Source of the DNA: Vicinamibacteria bacterium
Lineage (GTDB): Bacteria; Acidobacteriota; Vicinamibacteria; Marinacidobacterales; Marinacidobacteraceae
DNA length: 64,000 bases
Direction: 5' to 3'
NCBI GenBank assembly: GCA_963668695.2
Contig: CAXXLQ010000004.1
Location: 2,912,001-2,976,000 of the forward strand
Of the stretch, positions 7,468-63,660 are shown in pieces. The notes below the pieces were generated by a model. It worked only from the letters and a program-made list of their open reading frames with translations. It had not been told where the DNA came from and did not search any database. Position 1 is the first letter of the stretch. Each line of letters starts with the position of its first letter. A program made the translations under genes and the position numbers.

Positions 7468-7735
7468 CAGCCGGTGGTGGGACCCACGCGACGTTCGGCC
7501 GGCGATCCATCCCGGCGAAACAGCCTGTAATGGAACCCGCGCGGCGTTCGGCCGGCGATCCATCCCGGCTGAACCGCGTCGCTACGCGCCGCGCATCGTT
7601 GCGTTTCGGTCGAAATACACTCGGTATTCCTCCCTCACGCGCCTTGTCAGCCGGGCCCCCACCGGGAGAACTGGCCCCACCGGGAGAACTGGGCCTCGCC
7701 GGCCTCGGCGCTCGCGCGGGTCCCACCACCGGCTG
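7468..7735 (+). mobile_element. MITE-like element copy 2 (two left modules; tandem 18-bp inserts at 7657-7692)
   Basis: TTGA|CAGCCGGTGG...CCACCGGCTG; same core as copy 1. Confidence 0.85.
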
Positions 7736-7779
7736 TGGACCGGCGAGCCGGAACCGATTCCTCGGCCCAGTGACGCGCT

Positions 7780-7841
7780 CTTCGCTTCGAGTTTTCCACA
7801 GAGCCTGCCCTCGGCGGGAATTTCGCAGTCCCTCTTCCGTC
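7780..7841 (+). promoter_or_regulatory. Conserved upstream box plus ECF-sigma-like promoter of pilM
   Basis: CTTCGCTTCGAGTTTTCCACA (7780-7800), then GGAAT-N16-CGTC (7817-7841); near-identical arrangement at 26925-26985. Confidence 0.45.
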
Positions 7842-7850
7842 TGAGGGAGT

Positions 7851-9032
7851 GTGCGCAGTCTTGTCAGATGGAGACGCTCCGTGACCGGGCTCGGGGTGGA
7901 CTTCGGGTCTTCGGGAGTCAAGGCGGTAGCACTTTCCAGCGACGGCAGCGGCCTGACCCTCCTCGGAGCCGGACGCGAGGCGCTCGAACCGGGGGCTGTC
8001 CAGGACGGCGCGATCCGGGACCCCGACCCCGTCGGTGCGGCGCTCGGCCGCCTTCTCGCACGACTGGGGGTCCGTTGTCGTCGGGTGGCTCTTTCGATCG
8101 GCGGCAGTTCGGTCCTCGTCAAGAGGTTCCCGGCGCCGGCCGAAGCGGCCCTGTCCGGCAAGGCAGGGGACGGGTTCCGCGACGCTGTTGCACGGGAAGC
8201 GGCCCGACACGTTCCGTTCCATCTCGAATCCCTCGAGTTCGACTACGAGGGGCCGCTGCCGGCACTGGCGGAGCCGGTGCCCGGAGAGCCTGCTCGAAGG
8301 GAGCGCGGGGCCATCGTGTTTGGCGCCGCGCCGCGCGAGACGGTCGACAACCACTGTCGGGCCGTGACCGCGGCCGGGCGGCAGGTGACCCGGATCGAAC
8401 TCGAACCCTACGCGCTCTATGCAGCGGCGGGCCTTACAACTTCGCTCACCTCTCCGGATCGGGAACCCAGCGCCCTGGCCATCGTGGAGATCGGTGCGTC
8501 GCGGGCCGGGGTGCATGTCTTCGGGGGCTCTCCTCCTCCCCATCGCCTGATCCGGGGTAACCATTCCGCGCCGGACCCCGGGGCCGGTGCGGGCGCGCCT
8601 GGCGACCTCCTGGCCAGCATCCCGGCACCCGGAGCGGGGGCACGGGAGGTGGATCGGCCGCCGTTGGATGCGGCCCCTCAATTCGCACCGGCCGGCCGCG
8701 CCGGTCATTCCGAGCGTCAGGAAACGGGCTGGCCGGGACGCCCTACGGACGACGCGGACGTGTTCTGGAACCGCATTGTGGCGACGGCACGGGAGGCGCT
8801 CCGAGAGGCGGACCCGCGCGGTGGGGTTCGGTTGTGCGTAAGCGGCGGCGGAGCGGGCCTGCCCGGAATGCGCGCCCGGCTGGAGGAACTCGAATTGGGC
8901 AAACCCGTGGTCCTCAATCCGTTGGGGCAACTGGGCTCAGGGGACGGGGAGCCGGCGTTCTCGGTCGCAGCCGGTCTCGCCTATCAACAGATTCTTGATC
9001 TGACGGGACCTGCAAACGGACGTCGCTCATGA
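7851..9032 (+). CDS. pilM: Type IV pilus assembly protein PilM (divergent)
   Basis: GVDFGSSGVKAV, EAARHVPF, VEIGAS, SGGGAGLPG and FSVAAGLA; first gene of an MNOPQ-order cluster. Confidence 0.8.
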   Translation: MRSLVRWRRSVTGLGVDFGSSGVKAVALSSDGSGLTLLGAGREALEPGAVQDGAIRDPDPVGAALGRLLARLGVRCRRVALSIGGSSVLVKRFPAPAEAALSGKAGDGFRDAVAREAARHVPFHLESLEFDYEGPLPALAEPVPGEPARRERGAIVFGAAPRETVDNHCRAVTAAGRQVTRIELEPYALYAAAGLTTSLTSPDREPSALAIVEIGASRAGVHVFGGSPPPHRLIRGNHSAPDPGAGAGAPGDLLASIPAPGAGAREVDRPPLDAAPQFAPAGRAGHSERQETGWPGRPTDDADVFWNRIVATAREALREADPRGGVRLCVSGGGAGLPGMRARLEELELGKPVVLNPLGQLGSGDGEPAFSVAAGLAYQQILDLTGPANGRRS

Positions 9033-9649
9033 ATCTCCTGCCGGCGGAAGCCCGTCAAGGTCGAATGCTCGGAAAGCGCGCCGGTGCCTCTGCCCACGTT
9101 CGGATTTTTTGGGGCACGCTGCCCATCGCCCTGACGCTGGCGATGATTGGGCTCGACGTGAATGTCCTGCGTACGCGCCTTCAAGGCGCCCGCTCCGACC
9201 GGGACCGTCTGGGGACCCTGATCGCCGAACGGGAGGGGCTGGAGGAGCGTCTCGTGGCGGATCGGGAACGGCTTCGGCAACTGCGCGTGGCCGAAGGGCG
9301 CCTGGCGCGCTGGGACGAAGAGCGGTTTCTACTGCCGGAGCTCCTGCGGGGGCTCTCGGTCGCGGTTCCGGATGCGGTCGTTCTCGAAGAGGTCCGTCGG
9401 GAAGGCCCGGATTTCCGGGTGACCGGGCGCGGGGATTCGGCGTCCGTGGTCGCCAAGGCGGTGGACGCCCTTTCCGGGATGGAGCGAGTGCGCGATCTGG
9501 AGTTGCTCTGGGTCGAGCGGGTGGACGGAGCGGCCGGCGTGGAGGAGCAGCGATTCGCGCTCGCGGGCTCGCTTCGCTTCGCGTCGCGGGAACCTCAGCC
9601 GTTCGAGACGGTTGAGGCCGCACCGCGGGACCGGGAGCGTTATCGGTGA
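9029..9649 (+). CDS. pilN: PilN-like protein
   Basis: N-terminal NLLP motif, one TM segment, coiled coil, then ..LSVAVPDAVVL..; position after pilM. Confidence 0.78.
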   Translation: MNLLPAEARQGRMLGKRAGASAHVRIFWGTLPIALTLAMIGLDVNVLRTRLQGARSDRDRLGTLIAEREGLEERLVADRERLRQLRVAEGRLARWDEERFLLPELLRGLSVAVPDAVVLEEVRREGPDFRVTGRGDSASVVAKAVDALSGMERVRDLELLWVERVDGAAGVEEQRFALAGSLRFASREPQPFETVEAAPRDRERYR

Positions 9650-10281
9650 GTTGGATGTCTTCCTGGTGGGCGGTGCTTGGGCCTTTCGTGACGACGGGTC
9701 TCGTCGTTTATGGCGCCTTTCGGTTCGCGGTTCGGCCAGGAATGGTTGCGGAACTCAAACGCGTCGAGGATCAGGTGGCGGAGTTGAGGGTGCGAGTTGC
9801 TACGGACGGGGCGGAGGGTTCGGATCCCGACATCGAGGGATCCGCCGAAGTCGCCGAGGAACTGGTTCGAACCCAGGAGCGGGTCACGGCCCTGGCGGGC
9901 ATCCTGGCGACTCCGAGGGAAGCCGAGGCCGTTCTGGAATCGCTCGGCTTCATGGCCTCGGAGTCGGGAGTCCGATTTCTGCGCTTTGCGCCGGAACCCG
10001 AGTACCGATTGGACGGATATCTTGCCCGCGCCGCTTCGGTGGTGGCCGAAGGGGCGTTCTTCGAAGTCCTGGACTTCTTCGAACGGGTTTCGCTCTCGCC
10101 CCATTTGGTCCTGGTCGAGGACGCTGGGCTCGAGCTGGGCCCGGGCGGCGTCATTCGCTGCCGCTTCGTGGCCGTTACCGTGCGGGTCGCCGGAGTCGGG
10201 CTCGGCTCGCGGCACGAATCAGCCCCGGTCGCGACCGGGGCCGATGCGGCAGGCCTGGGTGGCGGAGAGTCCGGATGCTGA
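9646..10281 (+). CDS. pilO: PilO-like protein
   Basis: TM segment, coiled coil, ..EGAFFEVLDFFERV..; position in the operon. Confidence 0.78.
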   Translation: MSWMSSWWAVLGPFVTTGLVVYGAFRFAVRPGMVAELKRVEDQVAELRVRVATDGAEGSDPDIEGSAEVAEELVRTQERVTALAGILATPREAEAVLESLGFMASESGVRFLRFAPEPEYRLDGYLARAASVVAEGAFFEVLDFFERVSLSPHLVLVEDAGLELGPGGVIRCRFVAVTVRVAGVGLGSRHESAPVATGADAAGLGGGESGC

Positions 10282-10736
10282 ATGGTGCATCGCTCCGGAG
10301 AGGAGCCCTGATCCTCTTGCTTGTCGGACTTCCCGGGTTCGCGGAGGGTCGCGAGGGAGGCCCGGCGCATCGCTCGCAGGTCCGGAGAACGCGCGAGGAG
10401 CGAGTTCGCGATCCATTTCAAAAGCCGGCTGAGGGGCCCGACACGGCGCGCCCTCCCGGACTTGCCGGCATCGGGATCATGGAAGCGGTGGTTCGGGGGA
10501 TCGTGCGCTACCAGGAGCCCTCGGGCGGCGAAGAGGAGACCGGAGCATCCGGCTACGCGATTCTCGAGTCACGATCCGGAGGGGGATTCGTTGCCGCGCC
10601 GGGAGGTCGTCTCCTGGACGGAGTTTTGGGCGAGATCGTGGACGGCGGAGTCATTTTCTGGCTTGAAGGCGATCCGCACCGCCCCGTTCATCGGCCCCTC
10701 GCGGCGCCAGGGGCGGATCCCCCGGAGGTCCGATGA
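10275..10736 (+). CDS. pilP: PilP-like protein
   Basis: Signal peptide, RDPF motif, beta-rich C-terminus; lies between pilO and pilQ. Confidence 0.65.
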   Translation: MLNGASLRRGALILLLVGLPGFAEGREGGPAHRSQVRRTREERVRDPFQKPAEGPDTARPPGLAGIGIMEAVVRGIVRYQEPSGGEEETGASGYAILESRSGGGFVAAPGGRLLDGVLGEIVDGGVIFWLEGDPHRPVHRPLAAPGADPPEVR

Positions 10737-12547
10737 GATATCCGACGAAGCGCTCGGGATCGCTGCTGCGGTCCGGTTTCGCGCTCTGGGTCCTCGTGGG
10801 CCCGGGCGCGCACCCGGCTTCCGCAGCTGGCGCCCGAACGACGCAGGTTCTGGTCGCCGCATCTCAACCGGCGGTAACCGGGTTACAGGTTCATCCGGGG
10901 GAGGGCGAAACCAGTCTCCGGTTCCTCACCAACGGGAAGTTGCATGCGCCTGCCGCAGTGCGGTTGCAGGACCGATTCCAGGTGCTGATGCCGGGGGTGG
11001 ATCTTTCGGCGGTGGTTGGATCCTGGGGCATTGGAACGCCCGAGATCCTTGAGGTGCGGGTATCCGCGGACGAGACGGAGGGCATCACCGTGGAGGCGGC
11101 TCCCGGGGTTGTCTGCGACCCTTCGCTCTTCGAAGGCGGCCTTGAGATTTCGTGCCTTGCGCCGCCCTCGGAGAGTGAGGAGGGCGGCGCCGATGGCGAG
11201 ACCCCCCGCGGGGTGGCGGGCGCCGGGGAACCGCGGGTCAGTCTCGATTTTCGGGACGCGGATCTCCGGGACGTGCTCCGCGTGCTGAGCGAGGTCAGCG
11301 GACTCGATTTCGTCCTGCAACCCGGGGTGTCGGGCCGGGTCTCGGTCCGGCTGACCGAGATTCCGTGGGACCGGGCGCTGGAGCTGATCCTCCGCTCGCA
11401 GCGCCTCGGACACGTCCTTGAAGGGGGCGTTCTGCGCGTGGGCCCGTCAGCCGAACTTGCGGCCGAACATACGGAACGGCGGCGGCAGGAGGAACAGCGC
11501 GAGCTTGCCGGCGAGCTGATGACCTTCACTCGCAACCTGGCGTACGTGCGCCCGGAAGAGGTCAAGGAACTGCTCGAAAGCCGGTTGAGCGAGAGAGGGT
11601 CGCTCATCGCCGACCAGCGCACGGGGACCGTCCTGGTGGCGGACGTGGAGAGTCGGGTTCGCGAGATCGAATCGGTGCTGGACGTGCTCGACATCCCGGT
11701 TCCCGGGGTGGAGATCGAAGCGCGCATCGTCCTGGCGACCCGGACGCTTACCAGAAGACTCGGAATCCAGTGGGGCGGGGGCCTCCTGCGCGAACAGACC
11801 GGCAAGAAACTGCCCCAGTCCTTTCGAATCGGTGCGGACGCGATCGGAGGAGCCACCTCATCGTTCTCCACGGGTAGCCCGGCCGGTGGCGTGTTGCCCG
11901 CCGCGAACGCTGACGGCGGGCGCCCGGGCTACGGCGTGAATCTCCCCATCAGTGGCGCCCCCACCGGAGCGCTGGGCCTGGCGCTGGGTGCGCTCGGGGG
12001 CGCGGCCCATCTCGACCTGGCGCTGACCGCCGCCGAGCGGAAAGGCGAAGTGAGGATCCTTTCGGCGCCGAGGATCGTCGCGCAGAACGGCTGGCCCGCG
12101 ACAATCAAGCAGGGAGTGACTTTTCCGGTTCAGGTGGTGGCCAACAACACAGTTACCGTGCAGTTCCGGGATGCGGTCCTGGAACTCACGGTAACCCCAC
12201 AGGTGAGTCCCGGGGGCACGGTCCTCCTGGATCTCACCGTGAGCAACGACTCGCTCGATTTCGGCCAGTCTGTCGGAGGAATTCCGAGCATCCTGACCCA
12301 GAGCGCCACGACCCGGATACGGGTCGCAGATGGAGAGACGACGGTGCTCGGAGGTGTCTTCGCCACGCAGGAGGCGCAGGCTCGGGGCCGGGTACCGGGG
12401 CTGCACCGAATCCCGCTGCTGGGGCACCTGTTCCGATCGCGGGAGGAGAACCACCGCGATGAAGAACTGCTCATCTTCCTCACACCGAGAATTCGGTTCG
12501 TTGAGCGTGCCCGTTTGCCTGGCGCCGCCCCTCCGTCTCAGGGGTGA
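10733..12547 (+). CDS. pilQ: Type IV pilus secretin
   Basis: SLDFRDADLRDVLR, PWDRALELIL, VEIEARIV, LSAPRI, GETTVLGG, VPGLHRIPLLGHLFRS and ELLIFLTPRI. Confidence 0.93.
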   Translation: MRYPTKRSGSLLRSGFALWVLVGPGAHPASAAGARTTQVLVAASQPAVTGLQVHPGEGETSLRFLTNGKLHAPAAVRLQDRFQVLMPGVDLSAVVGSWGIGTPEILEVRVSADETEGITVEAAPGVVCDPSLFEGGLEISCLAPPSESEEGGADGETPRGVAGAGEPRVSLDFRDADLRDVLRVLSEVSGLDFVLQPGVSGRVSVRLTEIPWDRALELILRSQRLGHVLEGGVLRVGPSAELAAEHTERRRQEEQRELAGELMTFTRNLAYVRPEEVKELLESRLSERGSLIADQRTGTVLVADVESRVREIESVLDVLDIPVPGVEIEARIVLATRTLTRRLGIQWGGGLLREQTGKKLPQSFRIGADAIGGATSSFSTGSPAGGVLPAANADGGRPGYGVNLPISGAPTGALGLALGALGGAAHLDLALTAAERKGEVRILSAPRIVAQNGWPATIKQGVTFPVQVVANNTVTVQFRDAVLELTVTPQVSPGGTVLLDLTVSNDSLDFGQSVGGIPSILTQSATTRIRVADGETTVLGGVFATQEAQARGRVPGLHRIPLLGHLFRSREENHRDEELLIFLTPRIRFVERARLPGAAPPSQG

Positions 12548-12640
12548 ATTGGCGGCCCGCTGACCGGTCGGATTCGGGGAATCGCGCCCGCCCCTTGTGG
12601 TAGCGTTCCGGCCGTTGCGGGCCAAGCCCCGCTGCCACTC

Positions 12641-13108
12641 GTGCCCGCATCTTCGTCCAAAGAGCCGAACCTCGCCGACCTTCTGGAGGCTTTGGATCAG
12701 CTTGCCGGAACGGAATTCCACGAGGTGGATCTCCGCGTCGGAGGCGCCCGCCTGCGCGTCGCGCGGGGGCCGACCACAACCGCCGCCGGAGCGGTACTAC
12801 CGGCTGCGGTTCCCATGGCCCCGGCGGCCGGCGCCGACGACGGAGCGGCGGACGCGGCGGCATCCGGACTCAAGGCGATCATTGCTCCCATGGTCGGGAC
12901 GTTCTACCGTCGTCCCAGGCCCGACGCGGAGCCGTTCGTCAGTGTCGGAGATCGGGTCCGGAAGGGCCAGGTCCTGTGCGTCATCGAAGCCATGAAGCTG
13001 ATGAACAACATCGAGGCTGACGGCAGCGGCGAGGTTGTGGAGATCTTCCCGGAAGATGCCTCACCGGTGCAGTACGGAGACCGGCTCTTTGTGATCCGGC
13101 CCGCCTGA
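12641..13108 (+). CDS. accB: Acetyl-CoA carboxylase biotin carboxyl carrier protein
   Basis: APMVGTFY and EAMKLMN biotinylation motif. Confidence 0.95.
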   Translation: MPASSSKEPNLADLLEALDQLAGTEFHEVDLRVGGARLRVARGPTTTAAGAVLPAAVPMAPAAGADDGAADAAASGLKAIIAPMVGTFYRRPRPDAEPFVSVGDRVRKGQVLCVIEAMKLMNNIEADGSGEVVEIFPEDASPVQYGDRLFVIRPA

Positions 13109-13112
13109 ACGG

Positions 13113-16115: not shown

Positions 16116-16121
16116 CAGCCT

Positions 16122-16730: not shown

Positions 16731-16750
16731 CCGCCCGCGGGGCCAGCTAG

Positions 16751-17257
16751 CAGCCGGTGGTGAAACCCACGCGGCCCAGTTCTCCCGGTGGGGGCTCGGC
16801 CGGCGATCCATCCCGGCCAAACAGCCGGTGGTGGAACCCACGCGGCGTTCGGCCGGCGATCCATCCCAGCCAAACAGCCGGTGGTGGAACCCACGCGGCG
16901 TTCGGCCGGCGATCCATCCCAGCTGAACCGCGTCGCTTCGCGCCGCTCATCGTTGCGTTTCGGTCGGAAAACACCCGGGCCAGTTCTCCCGGTGGGGGCT
17001 CCTCCCTCACGCGCCTTGTCAGCCGGGCGCCTCGCCCCCACCGGGAGGACTGGCCAACCTCGGCGCTCACGTGGGTTCCACCACCGGCTGTTCACCACTC
17101 CGCTTCGCTGCGTTTTGCGTTGCGTTTCGGCCGGAAAACACCCGGGCCAGTTCTCCCGGTGGGGGCTCCTCCCTCACGCGCCTTGTCAGCCGGGCGCCTC
17201 GCCCCCACCGGGAGAACTGGCCGCTCTCGGCGCTCACCCGGGTTCCACCACCGGCTG
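16751..17257 (+). mobile_element. Compound MITE copy (three left modules, two cores and two right ends; five 18-bp inserts)
   Basis: CTAG|CAGCC...GGCTG|CTAA; internal left ends at 16822 and 16875, internal right end at 17090; the right flank is the kdsC stop codon. Confidence 0.88.
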
Positions 17258-20935: not shown

Positions 20936-21168
20936 CAGCCTGTGGCAAAACCCACGCGGCCCAGTTCTCCCGGTGGGGGCTCGACCGGCGATCCATCCCG
21001 GCTGAACCACTCCGCTTCGCTGCGTTCTGCGTTGCGTTTCGGTCGAAATACACCCGGTATTCCTCCCTCACGCGCCTTGTCAGCCGGGCCCCCACCGGGA
21101 GAACTGGCCCCACCGGGAGAACTGGGCCTCACCGGCCTCGGCGCTCACCCGGGTTTCACCACAGGCTG
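20936..21168 (+). mobile_element. MITE copy at the pilT stop codon (three 18-bp inserts)
   Basis: TTAG|CAGCCTGTGG...CCACAGGCTG|CCAG. Confidence 0.85.
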
Positions 21169-21172
21169 CCAG

Positions 21173-21309
21173 GAGCCGGTGGACAAGGTCGCGCGGTCCG
21201 GTTCTCCCGGCGGGGGCTCGAGCGGCGATGCATCCCGACGCAAACACCCCCCACCGGGAGAACCGGACCGCACCATTCTCGGCGCTCACGCCACGTTGTC
21301 CACAGAGTC
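21173..21309 (+). mobile_element. Degenerate, core-deleted MITE copy adjacent to the previous one
   Basis: GAGCCGGTGGACAA...GTTGTCCACAG with two variant 18-mers. Confidence 0.65.
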
Positions 21310-22455: not shown

Positions 22456-22483
22456 CAACCGGTGGACAAAGTCGCACGGCGCG
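22456..22483 (+). mobile_element. Solo MITE left end at the pilC stop codon
   Basis: GTAA|CAACCGGTGGACAAAGTCGCACGGC. Confidence 0.6.
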
Positions 22484-22509
22484 GTTGCTGTGCAAATGCA
22501 GTAGCGCCC

Positions 22510-22537
22510 GGACGCCGACAGCCGGACGCCGACAGCC
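22510..22537. repeat. Perfect 14-bp tandem direct repeat upstream of pilA
   Basis: GGACGCCGACAGCC at 22510-22523 and 22524-22537. Confidence 0.7.
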
Positions 22538-22883
22538 TGGATGGCGCGCTGGCAAGGGAACGCCGACCTCTGGCCTCCATCGCGCGGGAGCGCGAAACGA
22601 GCGCCGATGACGTTGCGCCATGCCAAGGTGAGGGCCGCGTCTTTTTGCCGCGTCTTTTTCATGACGGGCGAGGGTGTGCAGGAGGACCCGATCATGGGGG
22701 TTTCTTCCGGTCGGGCCTCGGCGTCCATCCTCTCGGCTACCGGCGGCCGGGGGCAACCACGAAATCCTGCGCTGTCTCTCAGCCTCGCCGTCCCGCCTGG
22801 ACGGGTGCGAGTGGGGCGCCGTTCGCCTGCGGCCTCGTCTCCGCCGGCGCGATCCACGAATCGTCCAAGGAGGACGTATCCTT

Positions 22884-23545: not shown

Positions 23546-23622
23546 CAGCCGGTGGACAAAGTCGCGCGGCCCAGTTCTCCCGGTGGGGCCCTTGGCGCTC
23601 ACGCCTCTCGGTCCACGGACTG
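23546..23622 (+). mobile_element. Minimal 77-bp MITE (two ends plus one 18-mer)
   Basis: CAGCCGGTGGACAAAGTCGCGCGGC[18-mer]...GTCCACGGACTG|CTAG. Confidence 0.75.
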
Positions 23623-33904: not shown

Positions 33905-34101
33905 CAGCCTGTGCACAAAGTCACGCGGCCCAGTTCTCCCGGTGGGGGCTCGGCTGGCGATGCATCCCGGCTGAACCGCGCCTCTGCCAGGCGCTCTTCG
34001 TTGCGTTTCGGTCCAAATACACTCGGCATTCCTCCCTCACGCGCCTTGTCAGCCGGGCGCCTCACCAACCTCGGCGCTCACGTCACTTTATCCACAGGCC
34101 G
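33905..34101 (+). mobile_element. MITE copy between the divergent menG and tatA/B genes
   Basis: CGAG|CAGCCTGTGC...TTATCCACAGGCCG|CTAG; one 18-mer at 33930-33947. Confidence 0.82.
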
Positions 34102-40389: not shown

Positions 40390-41912
40390 GATCCGCTGCG
40401 GCCGTGCGCAAGCCCTTCCAGGTGCTGTAGCACATGGCTACCAGCACCAGCGCGATCGGGAAGCCGGTGGCGAGTGCCGCGGCCTGCAGCGCCACGAGCC
40501 CGCCGCCGAGCAGCAGGGTGATGGCCACGATCCCTTCGAACGCGCACCAGAAGACGCGCTGGGCGATCGGCGCATCGAGCTTTCCGCCGGCGGTGATGGT
40601 GTCGATGACGAGCGAGCCGGAATCGGAAGAGGTAACGAAGAAGACGATCACCAACACGATGCCGATGACCGACGTCAGGCCGGCGAGCGGCAGCATCTCC
40701 AACATCCTGAACAGGGCCATTTCCGGCTGCTGCGCCTGCACCGCCGCGACCTCGCCCGCCTCGAGATGGTGCGATAGCGCCGTTGCTCCGAAGGCGTTCA
40801 TCCAGAGCGCGGAGAGCAGCACCGGGGCGACCAGCATGCAGCCGAATGAACGCGCGCACGGTACGCCCGCGCGAGACGCGGGCGATGAACATGCCGACGA
40901 AGGGCGACCACGAGAGCCACCACGCCCAGAAGAAGGTGGTCCACCCGTGCAGGAAATCGGAGTCGCCGCGCCCCAGCCAGTTGCTGAGCGGTCCGATCGC
41001 CGCGACATAGTGACCGAGGCTGGCAACGAACCCAAGGAACAGGTGGAGGGTGGGCCCGACCGCCAGGACGAACACGAGCAGCAGCAGGGCCAGGAGCAGG
41101 TTGGCCTGACTCAGGCGCTTGACGCCCCGGTCCATGCCCGCGACCACCGACGCCAGTGCCATCCCCGTAGTGCCCGCGATCAACAGCACCTTGGTCGTGT
41201 CGGTGGCCGGAACCCCGAACGGATGAGCCAGCCCTGCCGCCGTCTGCTCGGCTCCCAGCCCCAGCGACGTCGCCACAACCCGAAGAGGGTGGCGAACACC
41301 GCGAGGATGTCGATGACGTGGCCGAACCGGCCCCACACTGCTTCACCGAGGACCGGGTAGAAGGCAGACCGCAGCGTCAGCGGCAGCCCGAGGTTGTAGG
41401 CGGCGAACGCCAGCGCGAGGCGACGACCGCGAACATCGCCCACGGATGCACGCCCCAGTGGAAGATGGCGGAGGCGACGGCGAGCTGATACGCGGCGGCG
41501 GTATCGGCCGGATCGACGCCGAGCGGCGGATTCCGGAAGTGGTCGACCGGCTCGGCAACTCCGAAGAACATCAGGCCGATACCGATGCCGGCCGCGAACA
41601 GCATGGCGAACCACGACCAGGCGGAGTAGTCGGGTCTGGCGTTCGGACCGCCGAGGCGGACGCGGCCGAGCGGCGTCACCCGCAGCAGCAGCAGAAGCGG
41701 ACGAAGATGTTGCCGGCACCCAGGAACACCCAGTCGAACGTCGAGGTGAGCCAGGCGTAGAGCGAGTCGAAGATGCCGGCGGTGGCGTCCCGGAACGCCA
41801 GCACCCCGGCGACGAACGCGATGATGGTGAGGCTGGAGACGACGAAGACCGGGTTGTGGACGTCGAGGCCGAGGAACTGGACGTTGTCCTGCCCGAGCTG
41901 GTAGTCGGTCAC
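40390..41912 (-). pseudogene. BCCT (betaine/choline/carnitine) transporter pseudogene
   Basis: SWFAMLFAAGIGIGLMFFGVAEP, FHWGVHPW, WAWWLSWSPFVGMFIARVSRGRT and FFVTSSDSG lie in five ORF segments; at least 4 frameshifts (about 41700, 41420, 41280, 40845). Confidence 0.85.
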
Positions 41913-42824: not shown

Positions 42825-43081
42825 CCCGGACTTTTCCTACCGACGATTTCACGAGAGACGCTGGTTGCCGTAACTTGTTGACAATCTCATTGGTTGCGCA
42901 TGAGACTCAGACCCCGGCCGAGCTGACGGCGCGCACGTCCGGGAACGCCGGCCAGTTCTCCCGGTGGGGGCCTTCAGACCGGCAGCGCCCGCCGAGAGGC
43001 GGGCGAAAGGCGCGACGCGGGCGGTGTGGTTGCGACGCCCGACTTGCCGCCGTGCGGCATGCGGAGTATGAGAAATGCGGC
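42825..43081. mobile_element. 257-bp non-autonomous element of a second family (IS1380-like ends by recollection)
   Basis: CTAG direct repeats at 42821-42824 and 43082-43085; imperfect 16-bp TIR (CCCGGACTTTTCCTAC vs GCCGCATTTCTCATAC, 11/16); contains one 18-mer at 42952-42969. Confidence 0.55.
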
Positions 43082-43088: not shown

Positions 43089-44544
43089 CGATACTGTTCA
43101 CTTAGTGTATTTGGTTCGTTATGCTTGCCCCCGGCTCGGCCGGGAGGTTGCCTATGGCGAGAACGGTTGCGGAGCTTCCGAAAGGGAGCCGGATCACCGA
43201 CTACATCAGCCTCGGGGTGCTGAACGAGCGGATCCCGCGGGCGGCAGTGGACGAGGCGCTGCGGGCTACGGGGCGGCAGAGTGCCCGTCAGCGGGACCTG
43301 CCGGCGCACGTGGTGGTGTATTACGTGATCGCCTTGGCGCTGTACATGCAGTCGTCGTATCGAGAGGTTCTGCGGTGCCTGGTGGAAGGGCTGCGGTGGC
43401 TGGGCGATCCGTCAGCACGCCCACGGGTGGCGGGGAAGTCGGGGATTTCGCAGGCGCGCAAGAGGCTGGGCGCCGAACCGCTGCAAGCCCTGCATGACGC
43501 CGTGGTGCGGCCGGTGGGGCAGCCATCGGAACCGGGATGCGGCTATCGGCAGTGGCACGTGGTCAGCGTGGACGGCAGCACTTTGGATGTCGCGGACGAG
43601 TCTCCCAACGCGGCGGCCTTCGGACGCCCCGGCGCGAGTCGCGGCGCCAGTGCCTTCCCCCAGATCCGATTCGTGTCGTTGGTCGAGAACGGAACCCATG
43701 TTCTGTTTGCGAGCCGGATGGCGGGTTGCAACGTGAGCGAACAGCGCCTGGTCGAGGACGTGATGCCTTCCTTGAAGGCGGGCATGTTGTGTCTGGCGGA
43801 CCGCAACTTCTTCAGCTACGGCCGGTGGAATCAGGCCCGCACCGCGGGGGCGGATCTGTTGTGGCGCATCAAGAAGAACCTGCGCCTGCCACGGGAAACC
43901 CCGTTGGGCGACGGCTCCTATGTGAGCCGGATCTACGCCTCCGACAAAGACCGACGCCACGGGCGAGACGCGGTTCGGGTGCGGGTGATCGACTATCAAC
44001 TGTCCGGCGTGGGCGACGCCGAACCGCTGTACCGGCTGCTGACCACGGTGCTGGATGCGGATCGCGCCCCGGCCCCGGAACTCGCCACCCTCTACCACGA
44101 GCGCTGGGAGATCGAAACCGCGCTGGACGAACTCAAGACCCACCTCCGAGGCCCCCGGATCGTCCTCCGCAGCAAAACTCCCGAACTCGTCCGCCAGGAG
44201 TTCTGGGGCCTGATGTTGGCCCACTTCGCCATCCGCTCCCTCATGCACGACGCCGCCCGGCAGAGCGGAGACGACCCAGACCGACTCTCCTACCTCCATG
44301 CGGTTCGTGCGATCCGTCGCAACATCATCACCCACAGCGCCATTCCCCCCTCAGCGTCAGGACAGCCGCCGCCAACATCTCCTTGACGAACTCCTCGACG
44401 AACGGGTGGTGTCCCGTCGCAACCGGTGCACGCCCCGCGGTGGCAAGCGCAAGATGAGCGGTTATCCGCTGCGCCCCAGGCACGCTCCCTCCTGCCGCAT
44501 GGACGGCCCGCCAACCGTCCGAATCGTCTAAGTGAACAGTATTG
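43089..44544 (+). mobile_element. IS4-family insertion sequence
   Basis: 17-bp TIR C(G/A)ATACTGTTCACTTAG at 43089-43105 and 44528-44544; flanks CTAGCCC / GGGCTAG. Confidence 0.92.
43154..44386 (+). CDS. IS4-family DDE transposase (possible +1 extension to 44531)
   Basis: VDGSTL, LADRNFF and YHERWEIETALDELK (YREK motif); RBS GGGAGG before ATG 43154. Confidence 0.92.
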   Translation: MARTVAELPKGSRITDYISLGVLNERIPRAAVDEALRATGRQSARQRDLPAHVVVYYVIALALYMQSSYREVLRCLVEGLRWLGDPSARPRVAGKSGISQARKRLGAEPLQALHDAVVRPVGQPSEPGCGYRQWHVVSVDGSTLDVADESPNAAAFGRPGASRGASAFPQIRFVSLVENGTHVLFASRMAGCNVSEQRLVEDVMPSLKAGMLCLADRNFFSYGRWNQARTAGADLLWRIKKNLRLPRETPLGDGSYVSRIYASDKDRRHGRDAVRVRVIDYQLSGVGDAEPLYRLLTTVLDADRAPAPELATLYHERWEIETALDELKTHLRGPRIVLRSKTPELVRQEFWGLMLAHFAIRSLMHDAARQSGDDPDRLSYLHAVRAIRRNIITHSAIPPSASGQPPPTSP

Positions 44545-56349: not shown

Positions 56350-56367
56350 GACGAAGCGGAAGTCTAG

Positions 56368-56443
56368 GAGCCCGTGGACAAGTCACGCGGCCCGGTTCTC
56401 CCGGTGGGGCTCTCGCCGCTCACTTGACTTCATCCACCGGCTC
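56368..56443 (+). mobile_element. Minimal 76-bp MITE between metH and the symporter
   Basis: CTAG|GAGCCCGTGGACAAGTCACGCGGC[18-mer variant]...TCCACCGGCTC. Confidence 0.7.
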
Positions 56444-56546
56444 CTGGGCGCGGCACGGGTGGATTGCCGATGTGCGGACGGGCATCTCCTGCGGCCATCG
56501 TCTCCCGGGTACCATCACGCGCCCAGATCAATCGGGGGGTCCGCAG

Positions 56547-57767: not shown

Positions 57768-58183
57768 CAGCCTGTGGTGAAACCCAGGCGGCGTTCGGCC
57801 GGCGATCCATCCCGGCCAAACAACCGGTAGTGAAACCCACGCGGCGTTCGGCCGGCGATCCATCCCGGCTGAACCGCGCCGCTTCGCGCCGCTCATCGTT
57901 GCGTTTCGGTCGCAAAACACCCGGGCCAGTTCTCCCGGTGGGGGCTCCTCCCTCACGCGCCTTGTCAGCCGGGCGCCTGACCGGCCTCGGCGCTCACGTG
58001 GGTTCCACCACCGGCTGTTCACCGCGCCGCTTCGCGCCGCTCATCGTTGCGTTTCGGTCGCAATACACCCGGGCCAGTTCTCCCGGTGGGGGCTCCTCCC
58101 TCACGCGCCTTGTCAGCCGGACCCCCACCGGGAGAACTGGGCCTCACCGGCCTCGGCGCTCACCCGGGTTCCACCACAGGCTG
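57768..58183 (+). mobile_element. Nested MITE (two left ends, two cores and right ends) with an exact TTAA duplication
   Basis: TTAA|CAGCCTGTGG...CCACAGGCTG|TTAA; inner copy at 57821-58017. Confidence 0.9.
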
Positions 58184-58186
58184 TTA

Positions 58187-59191: not shown

Positions 59192-59209
59192 CCGAACTTT
59201 GCGCTCGGC

Positions 59210-60844
59210 TCAGCGCACGAGCAGGTTCCGGGCGCGGCGGTCCGCCGCCGGACTCTCGAGAGCGGACAGGAGCCACCCGCCGAAGTCCGGCCCGTAGCGG
59301 TTCGCGAATACGAGCGGGCTGAGCCTTCGCTCCTGCGGCGTGCCCCCGGGGAAGAGAACGTTTCGGGCGCGCAGGAAGCGCTGCCGGCGTTCTTCGTCCC
59401 GGCGCTTTGCGGCACGGACGCTCTTGGCTTCCAGATCCGTGACGATCGCGAGCACCTTCCCCCGGGCACGCCGGGCCGCCGCGGTCAGACTCTGGTCCAC
59501 CGCCCCGACGGTCCGCTCGATGTCTTCGAACGACGAGTTGAGAGCGTCCTTGGTGTCGGCGAAGGCCGCGACCGCAGCCGGGTCGGCAGCGCGCCGGTTG
59601 AGCGCGGCTTCGTCGCTGGCCGAAAGCTCATCGAAATCGATGCCGTCCCGATCCAGCACCCGCAGTTGCGACTGCGTCAGGATCGCAACCTGATGACGAG
59701 GGATGATCAGGGGTCGCGGGATCCGGTGGAGGTCGTAGAGGTCGCCCATCTGCGCGTGATAGGCGATTTCTGAGGGTCCGCCCACATACATCGCTGTCGG
59801 CAGCAGGAAATCCTGGACCAGCGGCCGCAGTAACACGGCCGCGCTCAGACGTTCCACGCAGCCTCCGAGAACCGCTTCTGGACGGCCCCCGGCGGAGTCC
59901 GTGCGGACCCGGGTCCGCACCCCGGTAGCCCCGGTGCAAAAGACCCCGTAGCCCTCCGCCGCGGCCTGTCCGTGAAACCCGATCTCCTCGATCTCGCGGG
60001 TTCGGGCCTCGATCTGGCGGCGGCCCTCGGCTTCGTGCCGGACCGCGGCCTCGAACACCGGAAAGGCGAGCCGCTTCAGGTCCGGCGCCGTCGGGTCCAT
60101 CACGACGAGCCCCGATCCCCGGGAGAGATGCAGCAGCAGGCGCCCGAACGCTTCGAGGAGGGAGCGGCCCGGCGCGTAGCTATCCTCGACCGCGGCGTAG
60201 AGGTCGGCCGAGTATTCCGTTTCGGGCAGGATCTGCCGGAGTTCTCGGTGCAGGTCGAGAACGGAGCCGTCGAGGATGCGGCGGAAGGCGGGTAAGCCGA
60301 GGTGTTCGTCTTCGGGCTGGTAGCGGAAACTGTGCGGGACCCCGGCGGCGTCCAGTACCCAGGCGCCCCGAATCTCTTCGAAGTTGTGATCGTCGCCCTC
60401 GATCCAGAAGACGGCGACGGCCGGCTGCCCGGTCTGAGCTTCCAGTTCACGCGCGGCCGCGACCGTGGACATGGCCTTGATGAGCGAATAGAGGGGACCG
60501 CCGAACAGTCCGGGTTGCTGGCCGGTGACGACTGCGAGGGTTTCGGGCCTGGCGAGCCGTTCCGCGGAAGCGAGTGCGCCGGCGTCGGCGCCCCAGGCCC
60601 GGTTGGTGGCGCCGATTACCTCAGCGGCGCGGGTCCGGGTGGGGTCGGCAGGTCGCGCGGTTCCGGCCCGCGCGAACGCGCCTGGCGTGAAGGGATCGGG
60701 AAGAAGCTCCCCAAAACGCCGCGGGTCGCGGGTCCAGGCGTCGAAGAAGGTGCCGGGGCGGACCCGAAGCGTGCGCAGCGGGCCGGCGGCGTCACCGGGA
60801 ACGGTCGGCGTGCTCCCCTTGAAAAGAGTTCCCGTAGCGTTCAT
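59210..60844 (-). CDS. bshC: Bacillithiol biosynthesis cysteine-adding enzyme
   Basis: VVTGQQPGLFGGPLY, FWIEGDDHNFEE, LLRPLVQD, YVGGPSEIAY and PQER. Confidence 0.9.
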   Translation of the reverse strand: MNATGTLFKGSTPTVPGDAAGPLRTLRVRPGTFFDAWTRDPRRFGELLPDPFTPGAFARAGTARPADPTRTRAAEVIGATNRAWGADAGALASAERLARPETLAVVTGQQPGLFGGPLYSLIKAMSTVAAARELEAQTGQPAVAVFWIEGDDHNFEEIRGAWVLDAAGVPHSFRYQPEDEHLGLPAFRRILDGSVLDLHRELRQILPETEYSADLYAAVEDSYAPGRSLLEAFGRLLLHLSRGSGLVVMDPTAPDLKRLAFPVFEAAVRHEAEGRRQIEARTREIEEIGFHGQAAAEGYGVFCTGATGVRTRVRTDSAGGRPEAVLGGCVERLSAAVLLRPLVQDFLLPTAMYVGGPSEIAYHAQMGDLYDLHRIPRPLIIPRHQVAILTQSQLRVLDRDGIDFDELSASDEAALNRRAADPAAVAAFADTKDALNSSFEDIERTVGAVDQSLTAAARRARGKVLAIVTDLEAKSVRAAKRRDEERRQRFLRARNVLFPGGTPQERRLSPLVFANRYGPDFGGWLLSALESPAADRRARNLLVR

Positions 60845-61440
60845 GGAGTTACCCGCCCGATCCGGCGCCAGGGGAAGACCCGGAAAACGGCTTCGCCGAT
60901 GATGGCGTCCCTGGACACCGTTCCCCAATGGCGGCTGTCGCTGCTCCCGCTCCGGTTGTCGCCGAGCACGAAGTAATCCCCGGCTTCGAGTGCCACCGAT
61001 ACCGCTCCCGGGCCATCCACCGCACGCGGGGCCTCGGCCCCGGAGGCGTTCGCCACCGGGGTCATGGCCTCCCGGAGCGCGCTCGCCGCGTCGGATCCCG
61101 GAAACACCTGAACATGATTGCCCGAAAACCGCACCGTATCTCCCGGCACCCCGATCACCCGCTTCACCATCACGGTGTCTTCGTCGGATGGATCATGAAA
61201 GAGGACGACATCGTCACGGGCGATGGAAGAGAGGCGGACGCCCAGCTTGTTCACCAGCACCCGCTCCCCGGAGCGGAGCGTAGGCGCCATGCTCGACCCC
61301 TGGATGCGGTACACCTGCGCACCGTACGCCAGCAAGACCCAGGCCGTGGCGCCGGCGATCGCCGCGGTACGGAGAAACCGCCACCGCGGCCGGAGGTTGC
61401 CCTTCGGCGCGATTCCGGAAGCCTCTGACATCCCGGTCAC
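60841..61440 (-). CDS. lepB: Signal peptidase I
   Basis: SSMAPTL, VKRVIGVPGD and GDNRSGSSDSRHWG. Confidence 0.92.
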   Translation of the reverse strand: MTGMSEASGIAPKGNLRPRWRFLRTAAIAGATAWVLLAYGAQVYRIQGSSMAPTLRSGERVLVNKLGVRLSSIARDDVVLFHDPSDEDTVMVKRVIGVPGDTVRFSGNHVQVFPGSDAASALREAMTPVANASGAEAPRAVDGPGAVSVALEAGDYFVLGDNRSGSSDSRHWGTVSRDAIIGEAVFRVFPWRRIGRVTP

Positions 61441-63347
61441 ATCCGTTCGGGAACGGGAATGCCAAGGAGCGCGAGCCCCTGTCGATGCTGGGTCAGAAAT
61501 GTCTCCACTGCGTAGGTTCGCAGCAACCGTTTGGTGGGATCCGGCTCACCGGCGATGCGGTAGCGCTCGTAGAAGCCATTGAAACGCTGCGCTCCTTCGA
61601 AGGCCCAGCGGGCGAGGACCTGCGGGTCTTCGCCGGCGGCGGCCGCCGCGGCCGTTTCCCGGAGTTCGAGCGCCCCCCGGAGAAGGATCCAGAGGTCGGC
61701 TGCTTCTTCGGGGTCCAGTTCGGCGAGGCGTTCGTTGAACCCCTCCGGCGGCAGGGGACACACGTCCGGCGCGGCACGCTCGAGCCGCGCGAGGATTTTC
61801 GCGGCCCGCACCGCCGCGTACTGCAGGTACGGCCCGGTGGCCCCTTCGAGGCTGAGGGCCTCCTTGAGATCAAAGACGATGAGCTGATTCTTGGTCACCC
61901 GCACCATCCGGTAGCGCAGCGCGCCGACCGCGATCGCCAGCGCCACGGACCTTTGCTCTTTCGCAGGAACGTCAGGATTCCGCGCTGCGACTTCTTCGGT
62001 CGCCCGTTCGAGGAGCGCGTCGAGGAAGTCATCGGCCTTGACTCCGACCCCCTTGCGGCCGGAAACCTCCACTGCACCGGCTCCCGGGGCGGCCACCAGA
62101 CCGAGCGCCTCCACCGTGGCCGGCGTCAGCGCCACTATTTCGTACGACAAATGGCGGGTTCGGGCCCGGTCGACTTCGGAGGTCAGCCGGGCCACGGCTT
62201 CCTGGACGACCTGTTGGGGGTAGGACTGCCGGGCGTCGATCACGTGATGGACGAGCGCCGCCGACCCGAAGCTCGGAGCGTCGGCATCGCCGGGCTCGGT
62301 GGTGCTGATCCAGGCGCGCCGGCCGTCGGGATACTCGTAGAACCGGCGCCAGCGGAAGTCGCGATCCAGGAGACCGAGCTGCCACAGCTGGTAGGCGATG
62401 TCCTTGCCCACGTACGTCACGGTGGCGTTGGAGCGAACGATGACCTTTTCGCCGTCCTGGGCCAGATCGGTATCCATCACCCAGCAGCCGCGGTTCTTGC
62501 CGGACTCGCTCAGGCGGATGGCGCCCCGGTCCCGCAGCAACTCGAAGGCGCGTTCCCAGAAGTGGAGGTGAAGGATCGACTTCTCACACGGCAAGAGGTC
62601 GTAGCGGACCCCGATCCGTTCCATGGTTTCGAGGTGCCGGTGCGCGATGGCGTCTGCCACGATGGCGCCCATCTCCGCCCAGGGCTCTTCGCCGTGCTCG
62701 AGGCCGTGGAGCGCCTCCTGGCGAGCGGCGCGCCCTTTCGGATCCTCCTCGACCCAGCGGGACACCTGGGTGTAGAGATCCCAGCACAGATAGTCGAAGC
62801 GTGGTTTTGCTACGAGGCGTCGCACCTCCTGCGCATCCAACCCCCGAAGTCGAAGGAATCCGAGGACTACATCCGCGACCTGTACTCCAGTGTCGTCGAT
62901 GTAGGTCTGAACCTCGATCCGGTGCCCCAGATACCTGAGGATGCGGGCAAAGGCGTCACCGAGGGTGGCGTTTCTCAGATGGCCGATGTGGGCCGCCTTG
63001 TTCGGGTTGATGCTGGTGTGTTCGACGACGTGGACCCCTGGGGGGGCCTGGGCGCCTGCTCCGGCAAGGGTGTGCCGGATCCACATTTCCCGGTTCAGAA
63101 AGACATTGACGTACCCGGGACCGGCCACTTCCACCCTCCGGACCTCGGGCCGCTCCGAGAGCGCCTCCGCGAGGGTCTCCGCGATCTCTCGGGGGGGACG
63201 CCGCAGGTGGCGCGCCAATCCGAACGCAGCGGGGAACGCGAGGTCCCCCTGATCCGGTGACGGGGGAATCTCGGACACCACCGGGAAGTCCGGCGCTCCC
63301 GCGTTGGCGGCGATTTCGCGGATGACTTCCTCAAGCGCGGCGAACAT
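61437..63347 (-). CDS. argS: Arginine--tRNA ligase
   Basis: EHTSINPNKAAHIGHLRN, KDIAY, SGRKG and GPYLQYA. Confidence 0.95.
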   Translation of the reverse strand: MFAALEEVIREIAANAGAPDFPVVSEIPPSPDQGDLAFPAAFGLARHLRRPPREIAETLAEALSERPEVRRVEVAGPGYVNVFLNREMWIRHTLAGAGAQAPPGVHVVEHTSINPNKAAHIGHLRNATLGDAFARILRYLGHRIEVQTYIDDTGVQVADVVLGFLRLRGLDAQEVRRLVAKPRFDYLCWDLYTQVSRWVEEDPKGRAARQEALHGLEHGEEPWAEMGAIVADAIAHRHLETMERIGVRYDLLPCEKSILHLHFWERAFELLRDRGAIRLSESGKNRGCWVMDTDLAQDGEKVIVRSNATVTYVGKDIAYQLWQLGLLDRDFRWRRFYEYPDGRRAWISTTEPGDADAPSFGSAALVHHVIDARQSYPQQVVQEAVARLTSEVDRARTRHLSYEIVALTPATVEALGLVAAPGAGAVEVSGRKGVGVKADDFLDALLERATEEVAARNPDVPAKEQRSVALAIAVGALRYRMVRVTKNQLIVFDLKEALSLEGATGPYLQYAAVRAAKILARLERAAPDVCPLPPEGFNERLAELDPEEAADLWILLRGALELRETAAAAAAGEDPQVLARWAFEGAQRFNGFYERYRIAGEPDPTKRLLRTYAVETFLTQHRQGLALLGIPVPERM

Positions 63348-63390
63348 CGGCGCGGAGTCTAGTGGCTGGACCGGGCCGGCCCCGATCTAA

Positions 63391-63660
63391 CAACCTATGG
63401 TGAAACCCAGGCGGCCCAGTTCTCCCGGTGGGGGCTCGCCCGGCGATGCATCCCGGCTGAACCACTCCGCTTTGCTCCATTCTGCGTTGCGTTTCGGTCG
63501 AAATACACCCGGGCCAGTTCTCCCGGTGGGGGCTCCTCCCTCACGCGCCTTGTCAGCCGGGCCCCCACCGGGAGGACTGGCCCCACCGGGAGAACTGGGC
63601 CTCGCCCCCACCGGGAGGACTGGCCGGGCTCGGCGCTCACCCGGGTTCCACCACAGGCTG
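63391..63660 (+). mobile_element. MITE copy upstream of argS with five 18-bp inserts
   Basis: CTAA|CAACCTATGG...CCACAGGCTG|TTAG. Confidence 0.87.

Follow-up and report, generated by a model that had tools for sequence, protein, structure and literature searches.

A 16-bp core with exchangeable 2-nt tails occupies many repeat sites in Marinacidobacteraceae genomes and serves as a landing site for IS110 elements

Introduction

The means by which bacterial genomes acquire dispersed repeats of some 20 bases has been an open question since the small dispersed repeats (SDRs) of cyanobacteria. The question is raised again by an 18-bp sequence (the 18-mer) that recurs within other mobile elements in a 64,000-nt stretch of DNA (the window) from Vicinamibacteria bacterium GCA_963668695.2, contig CAXXLQ010000004.1 (Marinacidobacteraceae, a marine family). 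The case offers matched empty and filled sites together with new insertions whose orthologous sites are empty, and with them a lead on the movement of the smallest mobile repeats. A literature search that covered few subscription journals returned no prior description of this repeat or of the lineage.

Results

Abundance and distribution of the 18-mer

Within the window, 24 matches were found at up to three mismatches (18 exact, five with one mismatch, one with two; Table 1), against a chance expectation of 0.16; none of 100 shuffles reached 24. A preliminary description of the window had reported about 24 near-identical copies, falling into four site classes and including exact tandem pairs, and one MITE with all sites empty. 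Count, classes, pairs and empty MITE were all confirmed, as were the copies listed and their positions, save that a start given as 63415 should read 63416 and that the three variants at 21198, 21249 and 56392 had been missed. The "unrelated element" said to carry the copy at 42952 proved to be a REP hairpin; in relatives, REPs of its family are found on either side of Y1/RAYT-like genes.

Genome-wide, 1,288 exact copies were counted, plus 278, 65 and 48 with one, two and three mismatches, totals that are slightly inflated by strain-haplotype contigs (C1/C3) and by a duplicated overlap at the ends of C4. Replichore bias is absent overall (761:804), site class F2 alone being skewed (48:86, p 0.001, uncorrected). 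The 18-mer is present in 21 of 27 family genomes, spanning five genera, and stands at chance level in 400 other genomes of the phylum. Searching genome contigs yielded at least 112 stretches; among the 80 stretches listed, nearly all belonged to Acidobacteriota of the same lineage and a few single matches fell in other phyla. Viral contigs gave one match, about the chance level. Read-level support takes the form of assembled contigs: short-read contigs from three DNA studies contain the 18-mer. Its presence in these contigs and in 21 genomes excludes the assembly or adapter artefact that the preliminary description had considered. An RNA run (X17) also covers 18-mer repeats.

Table 1. Copies of the 18-mer and associated features in the window. 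Slots are lettered recurrent positions in the host MITEs; PD, preliminary description.
Feature	Position	Strand
Empty foldback host MITE, left arm triplicated; shows unfilled slots	4722..5004	+
Host MITE bearing tandem pair at slot F	7468..7735	+
Tandem pair, slot F; two 16-bp cores sharing one CC joint, tail GC	7657..7692	-
Insert, slot A; target GT replaced	16776..16793	+
Insert, slot B; target TAT replaced by G + 20-mer	16980..16997	+
Insert, slot C; T6C variant, net +19	17036..17053	-
Insert, slot B	17147..17164	+
Insert, slot C	17203..17220	-
Insert, slot A, within MITE 20936-21168	20961..20978	+
Tandem pair, slot F	21090..21125	-
Variant insert, 2 mismatches, in old MITE copy; absent from PD	21198..21215	+
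Variant insert A3G, GG tail; absent from PD	21249..21266	-
Degenerate 18-mer split at TT by non-autonomous IS110-A derivative (~22487-22703) with REP cargo; autonomous relative L175	22481..22715	+
Insert with slot-A left flank; MITE without centre	23571..23588	+
Insert, slot A	33930..33947	+
Insert at site D in REP hairpin (starts 42941), net +19	42952..42969	+
Variant insert A3G; spanned by short-read contigs; absent from PD	56392..56409	+
Insert, slot B	57926..57943	+
Insert, slot B	58074..58091	+
Single insert, slot F, GT tail; target had GC	58123..58140	-
Insert, slot A	63416..63433	+
Insert, slot B	63514..63531	+
Tandem pair, slot F; one copy T6C	63563..63598	-
Insert, slot C, T6C variant	63606..63623	-

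The unit carries 2-nt tails and replaces target bases

The inserted unit consists of an invariant 16-bp core and two 2-nt tails, CC on the left and GC on the right. Divergence of the core is 0.14%, 7-fold below that of conserved host columns (1.0%). It replaces target bases, usually 2 (range 1-3), so that no duplication arises and the net gain is 18 bp, sometimes 19-20. The right junction is fixed and the left one shifts by a base or two. One site had been described as filled cleanly and with no target duplication; the second part stands, and filling looks clean only where the lost target bases match the GC tail. The unit is indeed too short for a MITE and devoid of terminal inverted repeats, its terminal stem measuring at most 3 bp and target bases being lost instead of duplicated.

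On C4, with tandem joints left out, the tail combinations are CC/GC (1126 copies), CC/GT (95), CC/GG (70) and GC/CC (31). CC stands on the right in 31 of 40 GC-left copies, as opposed to 15 of 1326 CC-left copies (p 9e-44, the copies not being independent). In this genome (G000) the swapped form is found at two REP site types, and G018, a member of another genus, has it as well; swapped tails further surround MITEs of the IS110-A family (see below) in G000 and G010. All 31 swapped copies on C4 sit at REP sites and may stem from few founders. Since the swapped form keeps the 3-bp terminal stem, structural selection offers an alternative reading. In tandem copies (139 arrays of 2-5), a single 2-nt joint, one CC, lies between cores. 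Judged from the sequences, these features suggest that the tails swap as cores would in a recombination reaction and that the junctions are the work of a recombinase; their geometry points to one with a 2-nt core.

Slot filling scarcely follows the host-MITE tree

A tree was derived from 171 of 288 pattern-matched MITE copies, those with other inserts, odd lengths or doubled centres having been dropped. Slots fill almost independently of this tree: 28 of the 32 possible slot combinations are present, and slot-state changes amount to 0.86-0.93 of those in shuffled data, whereas ordinary SNPs in the same MITEs are far more tree-like (ratio 0.04-0.87 in 12 controls). Descent from one ancestral MITE subfamily followed by deletion, a possibility raised in the preliminary description, is refuted by these figures; its proposal that many sites have each gained the fixed oligomer independently is upheld by them and by the new insertions described below. 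Both the standard form and a T6C variant are present at seven site classes, T6C being nearly absent at A, B, F1 and E, which indicates that sites were filled repeatedly from different donors.

Part of this pattern is what host recombination would produce. If it acted alone, the 18-mer would be copied from filled to empty slots by short-patch conversion or microhomology-primed repair, and new sites would be rare illegitimate events; mismatch repair would reset flanking SNPs and not the 18-nt loop, so that only the insert and the nearest bases would move. MutS is present, and slot B behaves in this manner: one position reads G in all 68 filled copies and T in all 103 empty copies, position -4 is C in 68/68 filled vs 74/103 empty copies, and a SNP at -5 is unlinked to filling (p 0.42). 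In samples of 400 kb each from G001 and G004 (20 and 15 clusters being unusable), 14 and 21 slots differed between filled and empty, a few of these being misaligned tandems or partial deletions, and the empty alleles carry the original bases exactly, an outcome impossible by excision. Strain haplotypes likewise show 4 filled/empty differences beside 62 shared states, although the genome has a single intact IS110 and this one is directed at a REP. Host recombination as the sole mechanism is nevertheless unlikely: it leaves the tail swap and the single-core joint without account, new sites without homology have the same tight boundaries, and the SNPs of the same MITEs follow the tree far more closely than the slots. 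It probably accounts for much of the slot toggling under any model.

New insertions have empty orthologs

The preliminary description had noted no copy inside intact coding sequences. This is true of the window, where 0 of 24 copies fall in crude gene models; genome-wide, 27 of 1,631 copies lie in crude ORFs, at least one of them in a conserved gene. An in-frame insertion in a 1040-aa gene, filled in G000 and G001 and empty in 14 of 16 genus genomes, replaced the central 2 nt of a 10-bp palindrome. Two further non-repeat sites with empty orthologs were identified among 50 tested. Template switching across the host hairpin, another early suggestion, is unlikely because the arms of the host do not contain the 18-mer and because a coding gene, too, has received it.

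Target sequences are diverse and have little in common; many lie at hairpin mismatches, bulges or the palindrome centre. Such positions would suit end-joining capture, whereby a nuclease frees the 16-bp duplex, leaving 2-nt 3' overhangs, and breaks trimmed by 1-3 nt are closed around it by Ku/LigD. The loss of 1-3 nt and the extra G at the left junction fit this scheme, and Ku is found in 27 of 28 family genomes. However, these include genomes without the 18-mer, no site was seen filled in both orientations at the same bases, and no nuclease that would release the duplex was found. We regard end joining as distinctly unlikely.

Two IS110 families land on the 18-mer

Two unrelated IS110 families, IS110-A and IS110-B, insert into the 18-mer. 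A domain check of L175, L151 and L147 showed DEDD_Tnp_IS110 and Transposase_20 (PF01548 + PF02371) both to be present. IS110-A repeats a TT core at both ends and forms tandem joints in L115, L174 and L175; IS110-B repeats a CC core at both ends. No third split position of the 18-mer was found. The bridge-RNA guides of IS110-B clearly match the 18-mer: in homologous RNA columns the target guides covary with the target, those of clusters B, C, F and D each fitting their own. Single guides taken alone reach p 0.015-0.095. The match is weaker for IS110-A, where the donor guide gives p 0.002-0.003, the target guide matches the 18-mer over 6-7 nt only (p about 0.12), and a homolog with another target (L166) differs at the target-guide position. 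The 18-mer had also been suggested to be a selected protein-binding tag; IS110 guide RNAs are the only readers of it found so far.

Elements of 146-436 bp end in the two halves of the 18-mer, at the same sites and with the same tails, swapped ones included. The 18-mer could then be the footprint of a larger element, a composite with IS110-A that moves and whose inner part later excises, which would also dispose of the difficulty of moving so small a unit. Yet what lies inside is an entire IS110 with guides that fit the 18-mer as target, if more weakly than those of IS110-B, and IS110-A end patterns are restricted to genus g1 (12 and 13 of 15 genomes, none of 12 others), whereas the 18-mer spans five genera. 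Moreover, IS110 excision did not regenerate the target in the passages of the published report that deal with it (10.1101/2025.10.25.684509). We consider such a footprint extremely improbable. The idea that the 18-mer represents the fused ends of a longer element was dropped, the inner part being IS110 and its MITEs.

Search for the writer

No cognate writer of the unit was found. Ends or donor guides fitting the outer joint were found neither in 32 family IS110 ORFs and six more loci (flanks read) nor in 80 of 355 metagenome relatives. A search for serine resolvases (PF00239) in this genome was negative. Six tyrosine recombinases and a weak partial NucS-like match were noted.

A reverse transcriptase or a HUH/RAYT enzyme had been proposed as the writer, possibly with a source copy beside its gene or beside an ncRNA. 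In R2 elements, target-primed reverse transcription leaves one junction precise and the other variable, and 2 bp of the target are lost; such a reaction, templated here by a 20-22-nt RNA, would be consistent with the fixed right end, the variable left end and the very high constancy of the unit. The RVT_1 profile (PF00078), however, was matched in 4 of 28 family genomes, two of them without the 18-mer, and not in this one; a divergent RT escaping the profile is conceivable. No RNA template or conserved source locus was found, tRNA and tmRNA having been listed, and Rfam gave no match for eight loci at E 0.5. Several variants each occur at many sites, suggesting copying from copies. RNA-templated writing thus appears very unlikely. 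Two candidates were rejected: a 6S RNA/pRNA template, suggested by a resemblance, gave one match (E 0.41) that lacks the 18-mer, and a near-match shared by three genomes that do not carry the 18-mer reflects coincidence in a coding sequence.

In 15 of 28 genomes, Y1 genes have arrays of the same REPs on their flanks, and these REPs make up many of the targets, as would be expected if a REP-associated HUH nuclease (RAYT-like Y1) moved the oligomer by single-strand cleavage and transfer. HUH transfer should entail no target loss, whereas target bases are lost here. Furthermore, Y1 is absent from G000, G004, G018 and G019, all rich carriers, and from G025, genomes that together hold most copies. 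Nor do the unit junctions lie between C and T or C and A, where TnpA-REP cleaves according to the relevant passages of the published account (PMC8266576). The involvement of Y1 is doubtful, and we consider it highly improbable as the writer.

Discussion

We tentatively favour a model in which a minimal element is mobilised in trans by an IS110-type recombinase, while host conversion switches slots between filled and empty. The unit would be a non-autonomous micro-element, a 16-bp core whose two 2-nt tails act as recombination cores. In a rare step that creates new sites, the recombinase would cut the target across about 2 nt and join the unit's two 3' ends, tails included, to it; the target's own 2 nt (sometimes 1 or 3) would be lost or repaired away. 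The richness of the lineage in REP-targeting IS110s with 2-nt cores makes a bridge recombinase of the IS110 family the likeliest enzyme. In a frequent second step, host repeat copies would exchange filled and empty states with a few flanking bases, and multiplying MITEs and REPs would carry filled slots along. Finally, two unrelated IS110 families would have come to use the abundant 18-mer as a programmed landing site. Inferred here are the chemistry, the identity of the enzyme and the exit of the 16-bp unit from its donor site.

Published passages on IS110 describe a 5'-phosphoserine intermediate, cleavage beside a 2-nt core, tolerance of core mismatches and sequential top-strand transfer without a circle (PMC11208158; 10.1101/2025.10.25.684509). 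Several observations speak against an IS110 writer. The targets of the unit share little sequence, whereas IS621 targeting tolerates few mismatches in the portion of the study that addresses it (PMC11208160); the unit's tails differ, whereas known IS110s have identical cores. IS110 was detected in no more than 11 of 28 family genomes, and G019, with its 70 copies, is not among them. If the top strand alone were transferred, one side should retain the target core, which is seen in a minority (e.g. 6/303 at slot A). Lastly, 16 bp is too small for a double-stranded circle. A more specific version of the model, possible in our view and held with less confidence than the general one, takes the unit to be the least that an RNA-guided IS110-type recombinase can use as substrate. 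It would consist of two donor half-sites and nothing else, would move into laxly chosen targets by sequential strand transfer with no circle formed, and would also seed landing sites to which two other IS110 families retargeted their guides.

The junction signature, 2-nt target loss with carried, swappable tails, names a chemistry that can be tested in vitro. Were the writer of IS110 type, bridge recombinases would move cargo far below circle size and write over cores that do not match, a point of relevance to off-target activity in genome editing. Were the unit such a minimal substrate, no smaller enzyme-mobilised DNA element would have been described, and SDR-type repeats would have their first mechanism. 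Whatever the writer, IS110 families reprogram their target guides to a micro-repeat, clearly so in one family and less so in the other.

Comparison with known systems

With IS110 elements, as far as the accounts of IS621 (PMC11208160, PMC11208158), ISPpu9/MITEPpu9 (PMC12288879) and CazIS110-1 describe them, the unit shares the use of repeats as targets and the absence of target duplication. It also shows a 2-nt core, with one core at tandem joints. It differs in being 16 bp long without gene or RNA, in its unequal flanks (CC left and GC right, or swapped) where IS110s have the same core on both sides, and in its diverse targets in place of a guide-specified one of about 11 nt. IS110-A and IS110-B, with PF01548 + PF02371, are true IS110 members. 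Tn916-type elements carry donor flanking bases to a new site as coupling sequences, through a mismatched overlap. The unit also brings flanking bases from its donor site, but it is small and has 2-nt tails, whereas Tn916 is a large circular element with a tyrosine recombinase and a 6-bp overlap that normally keeps one target side. The REP hosts are of the TnpA-REP kind and flank Y1 genes in relatives; the unit, by contrast, lacks the form of a hairpin with a GTAG/GGAG foot, and the junctions it makes misfit the cleavage sites given for TnpA-REP in the passages cited above (PMC8266576).

A close likeness is to the small dispersed repeats SDR1-8 of Nostocaceae, which passages citing them describe as about 20 nt long, dispersed and tandem, apparently mobile and precisely inserted into other short repeats, as SDR5 is into HIP1 (PMC4390886, PMC2884548). 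The unit is similarly very short, dispersed and tandem, and sits in other repeats with filled and empty sites. Its phylum and probably its sequence differ, it has no single fixed target and, on the comparison that such passages allow, it may stand apart in replacing target bases, swapping tails and hosting IS110 landings. The unit resembles the cyanobacterial SDRs in behaviour but is probably not a member of them.

Abundance and distribution of the 18-mer

Allowing up to three mismatches, 24 copies of the 18-mer (part of a unit read as a 16-bp core with 2-nt tails, usually CC on the left and GC on the right) were found in the window versus 0.16 expected. The preliminary description held up for the positions, the classes of site, the tandem pairs and the empty MITE, with small corrections (e.g. 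63416 for 63415). The source genome as a whole contains 1,288 exact copies. Genome-wide counts are slightly inflated because contigs C1 and C3 are 97.5-99.6% haplotypes of regions of contig C4, whose own start and end overlap. A genome-wide test revealed no overall replichore bias.

The 18-mer is present in 21 of 27 genomes of the same family, spread over five genera, and in 0 of 33 other genomes; among 400 further genomes of the phylum, four have one match each, with one mismatch (control matches, 8). An assembly artefact had been named as a possible refutation. Short-read contigs from three DNA studies span the 18-mer and the unique flanks joined to it; thus, the repeat is not such an artefact. 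Literature searches listed no paper describing it.

Features of the window
Feature	Window coordinates	Basis
Longer element with parts of the 18-mer as ends	22481-22715	
Intact IS4-family transposase ORF	43121-44386	Nterm_IS4 + DDE_Tnp_1
FAD-monooxygenase-like gene in two reading frames, split near 7061	6348-7466	motifs by eye
Short BCCT transporter fragment	41377-41679	profile positions 59-143 of 485

Junctions of the inserted unit

Comparison of filled and empty sites showed that the 18-mer, with its 2-nt right tail, stands in place of target bases. At sites A (GT), F (GC), E, G, H, I, J and N it replaces two of them, at C, D and K a single one, and at B three, where a G is also added. Divergence is 0.14% in the core versus 1.0% in conserved host columns, and mismatches within the 18-mer cluster at positions 1, 3 and 6. 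On C4, the tails around the core are CC/GC (1126 copies), CC/GT (95), CC/GG (70) or GC/CC (31), a right CC accompanying 31 of 40 GC-left copies versus 15 of 1326 CC-left copies. The tail swap was seen again in a second genome (G018) and flanking longer elements in the source genome (G000) and in G010. A single dinucleotide separates adjacent cores in 139 tandem arrays. In a subset of events, the base to the left of the unit is not that of the empty ortholog: slot B has G there, and loci L335 and L542 have A, accompanied by a GG tail; therefore, the right junction is fixed and the left one slightly variable.

At slots C, D and K throughout the genome, filled alleles more often have a T at the third base to the left of the insert (19 of 56 versus 6 of 115 at slot C), and this T turns the junction into a perfect palindrome. 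Candidate causes are quasi-palindrome correction, methylation damage and carry-over.

Independent filling and new sites

The claim that the 18-mer is gained independently at many sites was borne out in 171 of the 288 MITE copies, where 28 of the 32 possible slot combinations are found and the four-gamete test fails for each of the 10 slot pairs. Across four distance bins, r2 was 0.047, 0.030, 0.019 and 0.015 between slots and SNPs, and 0.248, 0.072, 0.077 and 0.095 between SNPs. The MITE phylogeny, proposed earlier as a check, agreed: slot changes amounted to 0.86-0.93 of the shuffled number (12 SNP controls, 0.04-0.87, three of them at 0.85-0.87). Slot E is linked to MITE subfamily.

Filled or empty state differs at 4 orthologous loci between strain haplotypes (62 shared), at 14 between the source genome and G001 (38 shared) and at 21 between the source genome and G004 (43 shared). 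Since empty alleles carry the original bases, loss of the 18-mer reflects conversion as opposed to excision. At slots A, B, C and F, host alleles are mostly kept beyond about 4 nt from the insert. Spread by host recombination alone is an unlikely account. New sites also arise outside repeats. In G000 and G001, a 1040-aa gene, presumably RND/AcrB-type by its motifs, carries the 18-mer in frame, and 14 other genomes of the genus lack this insert, which stands where the closest empty ortholog has the 2 nt at the centre of a 10-bp palindrome. Two further non-repeat sites were found among 50 contexts tested.

Filled REP units also lie within predicted reading frames at C4 positions 1820432, 2242075 and 1610725, the predicted product being a short Gly/Ser/Pro-rich insert.

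IS110 elements within the 18-mer

About 29 longer elements in the source genome end with the right part of the 18-mer, and many start with its left part. The inner portion of these elements occurs in tandems with a TT joint (L115), and its ends are those of an autonomous IS110, family A (L175, L174, L151, L180). Of 64 distinct IS110-A left ends, 41 directly follow an exact CCAGTT, most of the rest come after a close variant of it, and 4 represent tandem joints; among 77 right ends, 50 run exactly into the 18-mer. A second family, IS110-B, with broken copies in the source genome, is inserted between the G's near the right end of the 18-mer in 13 of 13 distinct contexts found. When bridge (guide) RNAs of four related IS110 clusters were aligned, left and right target-guide columns fitted each cluster's own target, namely three REP sites and, for IS110-B, the right junction of the 18-mer. 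Single guides taken alone match weakly, and the apparent match of the IS110-A target guide to the 18-mer is at most suggestive. IS110-A end patterns are confined to one genus (g1); therefore, the 18-mer predates these elements and is more widely distributed. That it is the footprint of a larger element is highly improbable.

Clusters C, F and D (L011, L146, L153) share one RNA scaffold, with guides each set to a different REP hairpin position; judged from sequence, they form a natural retargeting series. Copies of cluster C from G008 and G004 (L148, L170, L184) lack the L011 left end, differ upstream and are possibly an expanded element. An IS110-A homolog in G001 (L166) has identical donor ends and a different target and target-guide columns. 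Five head-to-tail IS110-A MITE units lie within one split 18-mer (L115:1330-2720), and a 383-bp triplication includes host REP DNA (L031:1230-2290). The right end of IS110-B (L147:2744-2764) resembles the core minus three bases, whose reverse strand is in turn similar to the conserved scaffold of the bridge RNA. These likenesses may be due to chance; they would be of consequence if the unit originated as the stub of an IS110 end.

Possible mechanisms and comparison with known systems

No writer of the 18-mer was found among the RT, Y1 and IS110 genes of the family genomes. RVT_1 occurs in 4 of 28 and Ku in 27 of 28; Y1 is found in 15 of 28 and is absent from the richest carriers (G000, G004, G018). 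Capture by end joining is rather improbable, RNA templating of the 18-mer quite improbable and movement by a RAYT very improbable.

The Y1 genes of relatives are RAYT-like (partial match to PF01797; L128, L134, L140, L142) and are bordered by long tandem arrays of REP units with GGAG/GGAA feet. This arrangement occurs in 15 of 28 family genomes; in the source genome no Y1 was found and the REPs are kept. A 397-aa frame there (L512, G000:C4:3254065-3254271) has a weak partial match to NucS_C, and the genome also has MutS.

We tentatively favor IS110-type writing plus host conversion as the process that makes the pattern, at slightly less than even probability. The observed loss of two target bases, with both donor tails retained, would result if a 16-bp duplex bearing 3′ overhangs of 2 nt were joined by its 3′ ends to a target with an equally staggered cut and the target flaps were then repaired. 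According to the respective papers, IS621 cleaves beside a 2-nt core via a 5′-phosphoserine and tolerates some core mismatch, and mismatches may remain for host repair (PMC11208158); CazIS110-1 junctions can be transferred sequentially, with no circle needed (10.1101/2025.10.25.684509); guides matched only by half suffice for some reactions (10.64898/2026.08.31.748434; 10.64898/2026.08.14.744561); and non-autonomous IS110 passengers are known (PMC12288879). Against IS110-type writing, targets are diverse, the two tails are unequal, some carriers have no IS110 and a top-strand-only model fits poorly. IS110 genes occur in 11 of 28 family genomes, and in none of the IS110 loci read do the ends or the donor guides match the outer joint. 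The junction data make the insertion mechanism testable.

Classification of the 18-mer as a MITE or as a REP was rejected, and derivation from an IS110 is at most a candidate reading. The 18-mer works like the small dispersed repeats of Nostocaceae cyanobacteria, as portrayed in papers citing the work on them (PMC4390886; PMC2884548), but it falls outside their size range and its host belongs to another phylum.
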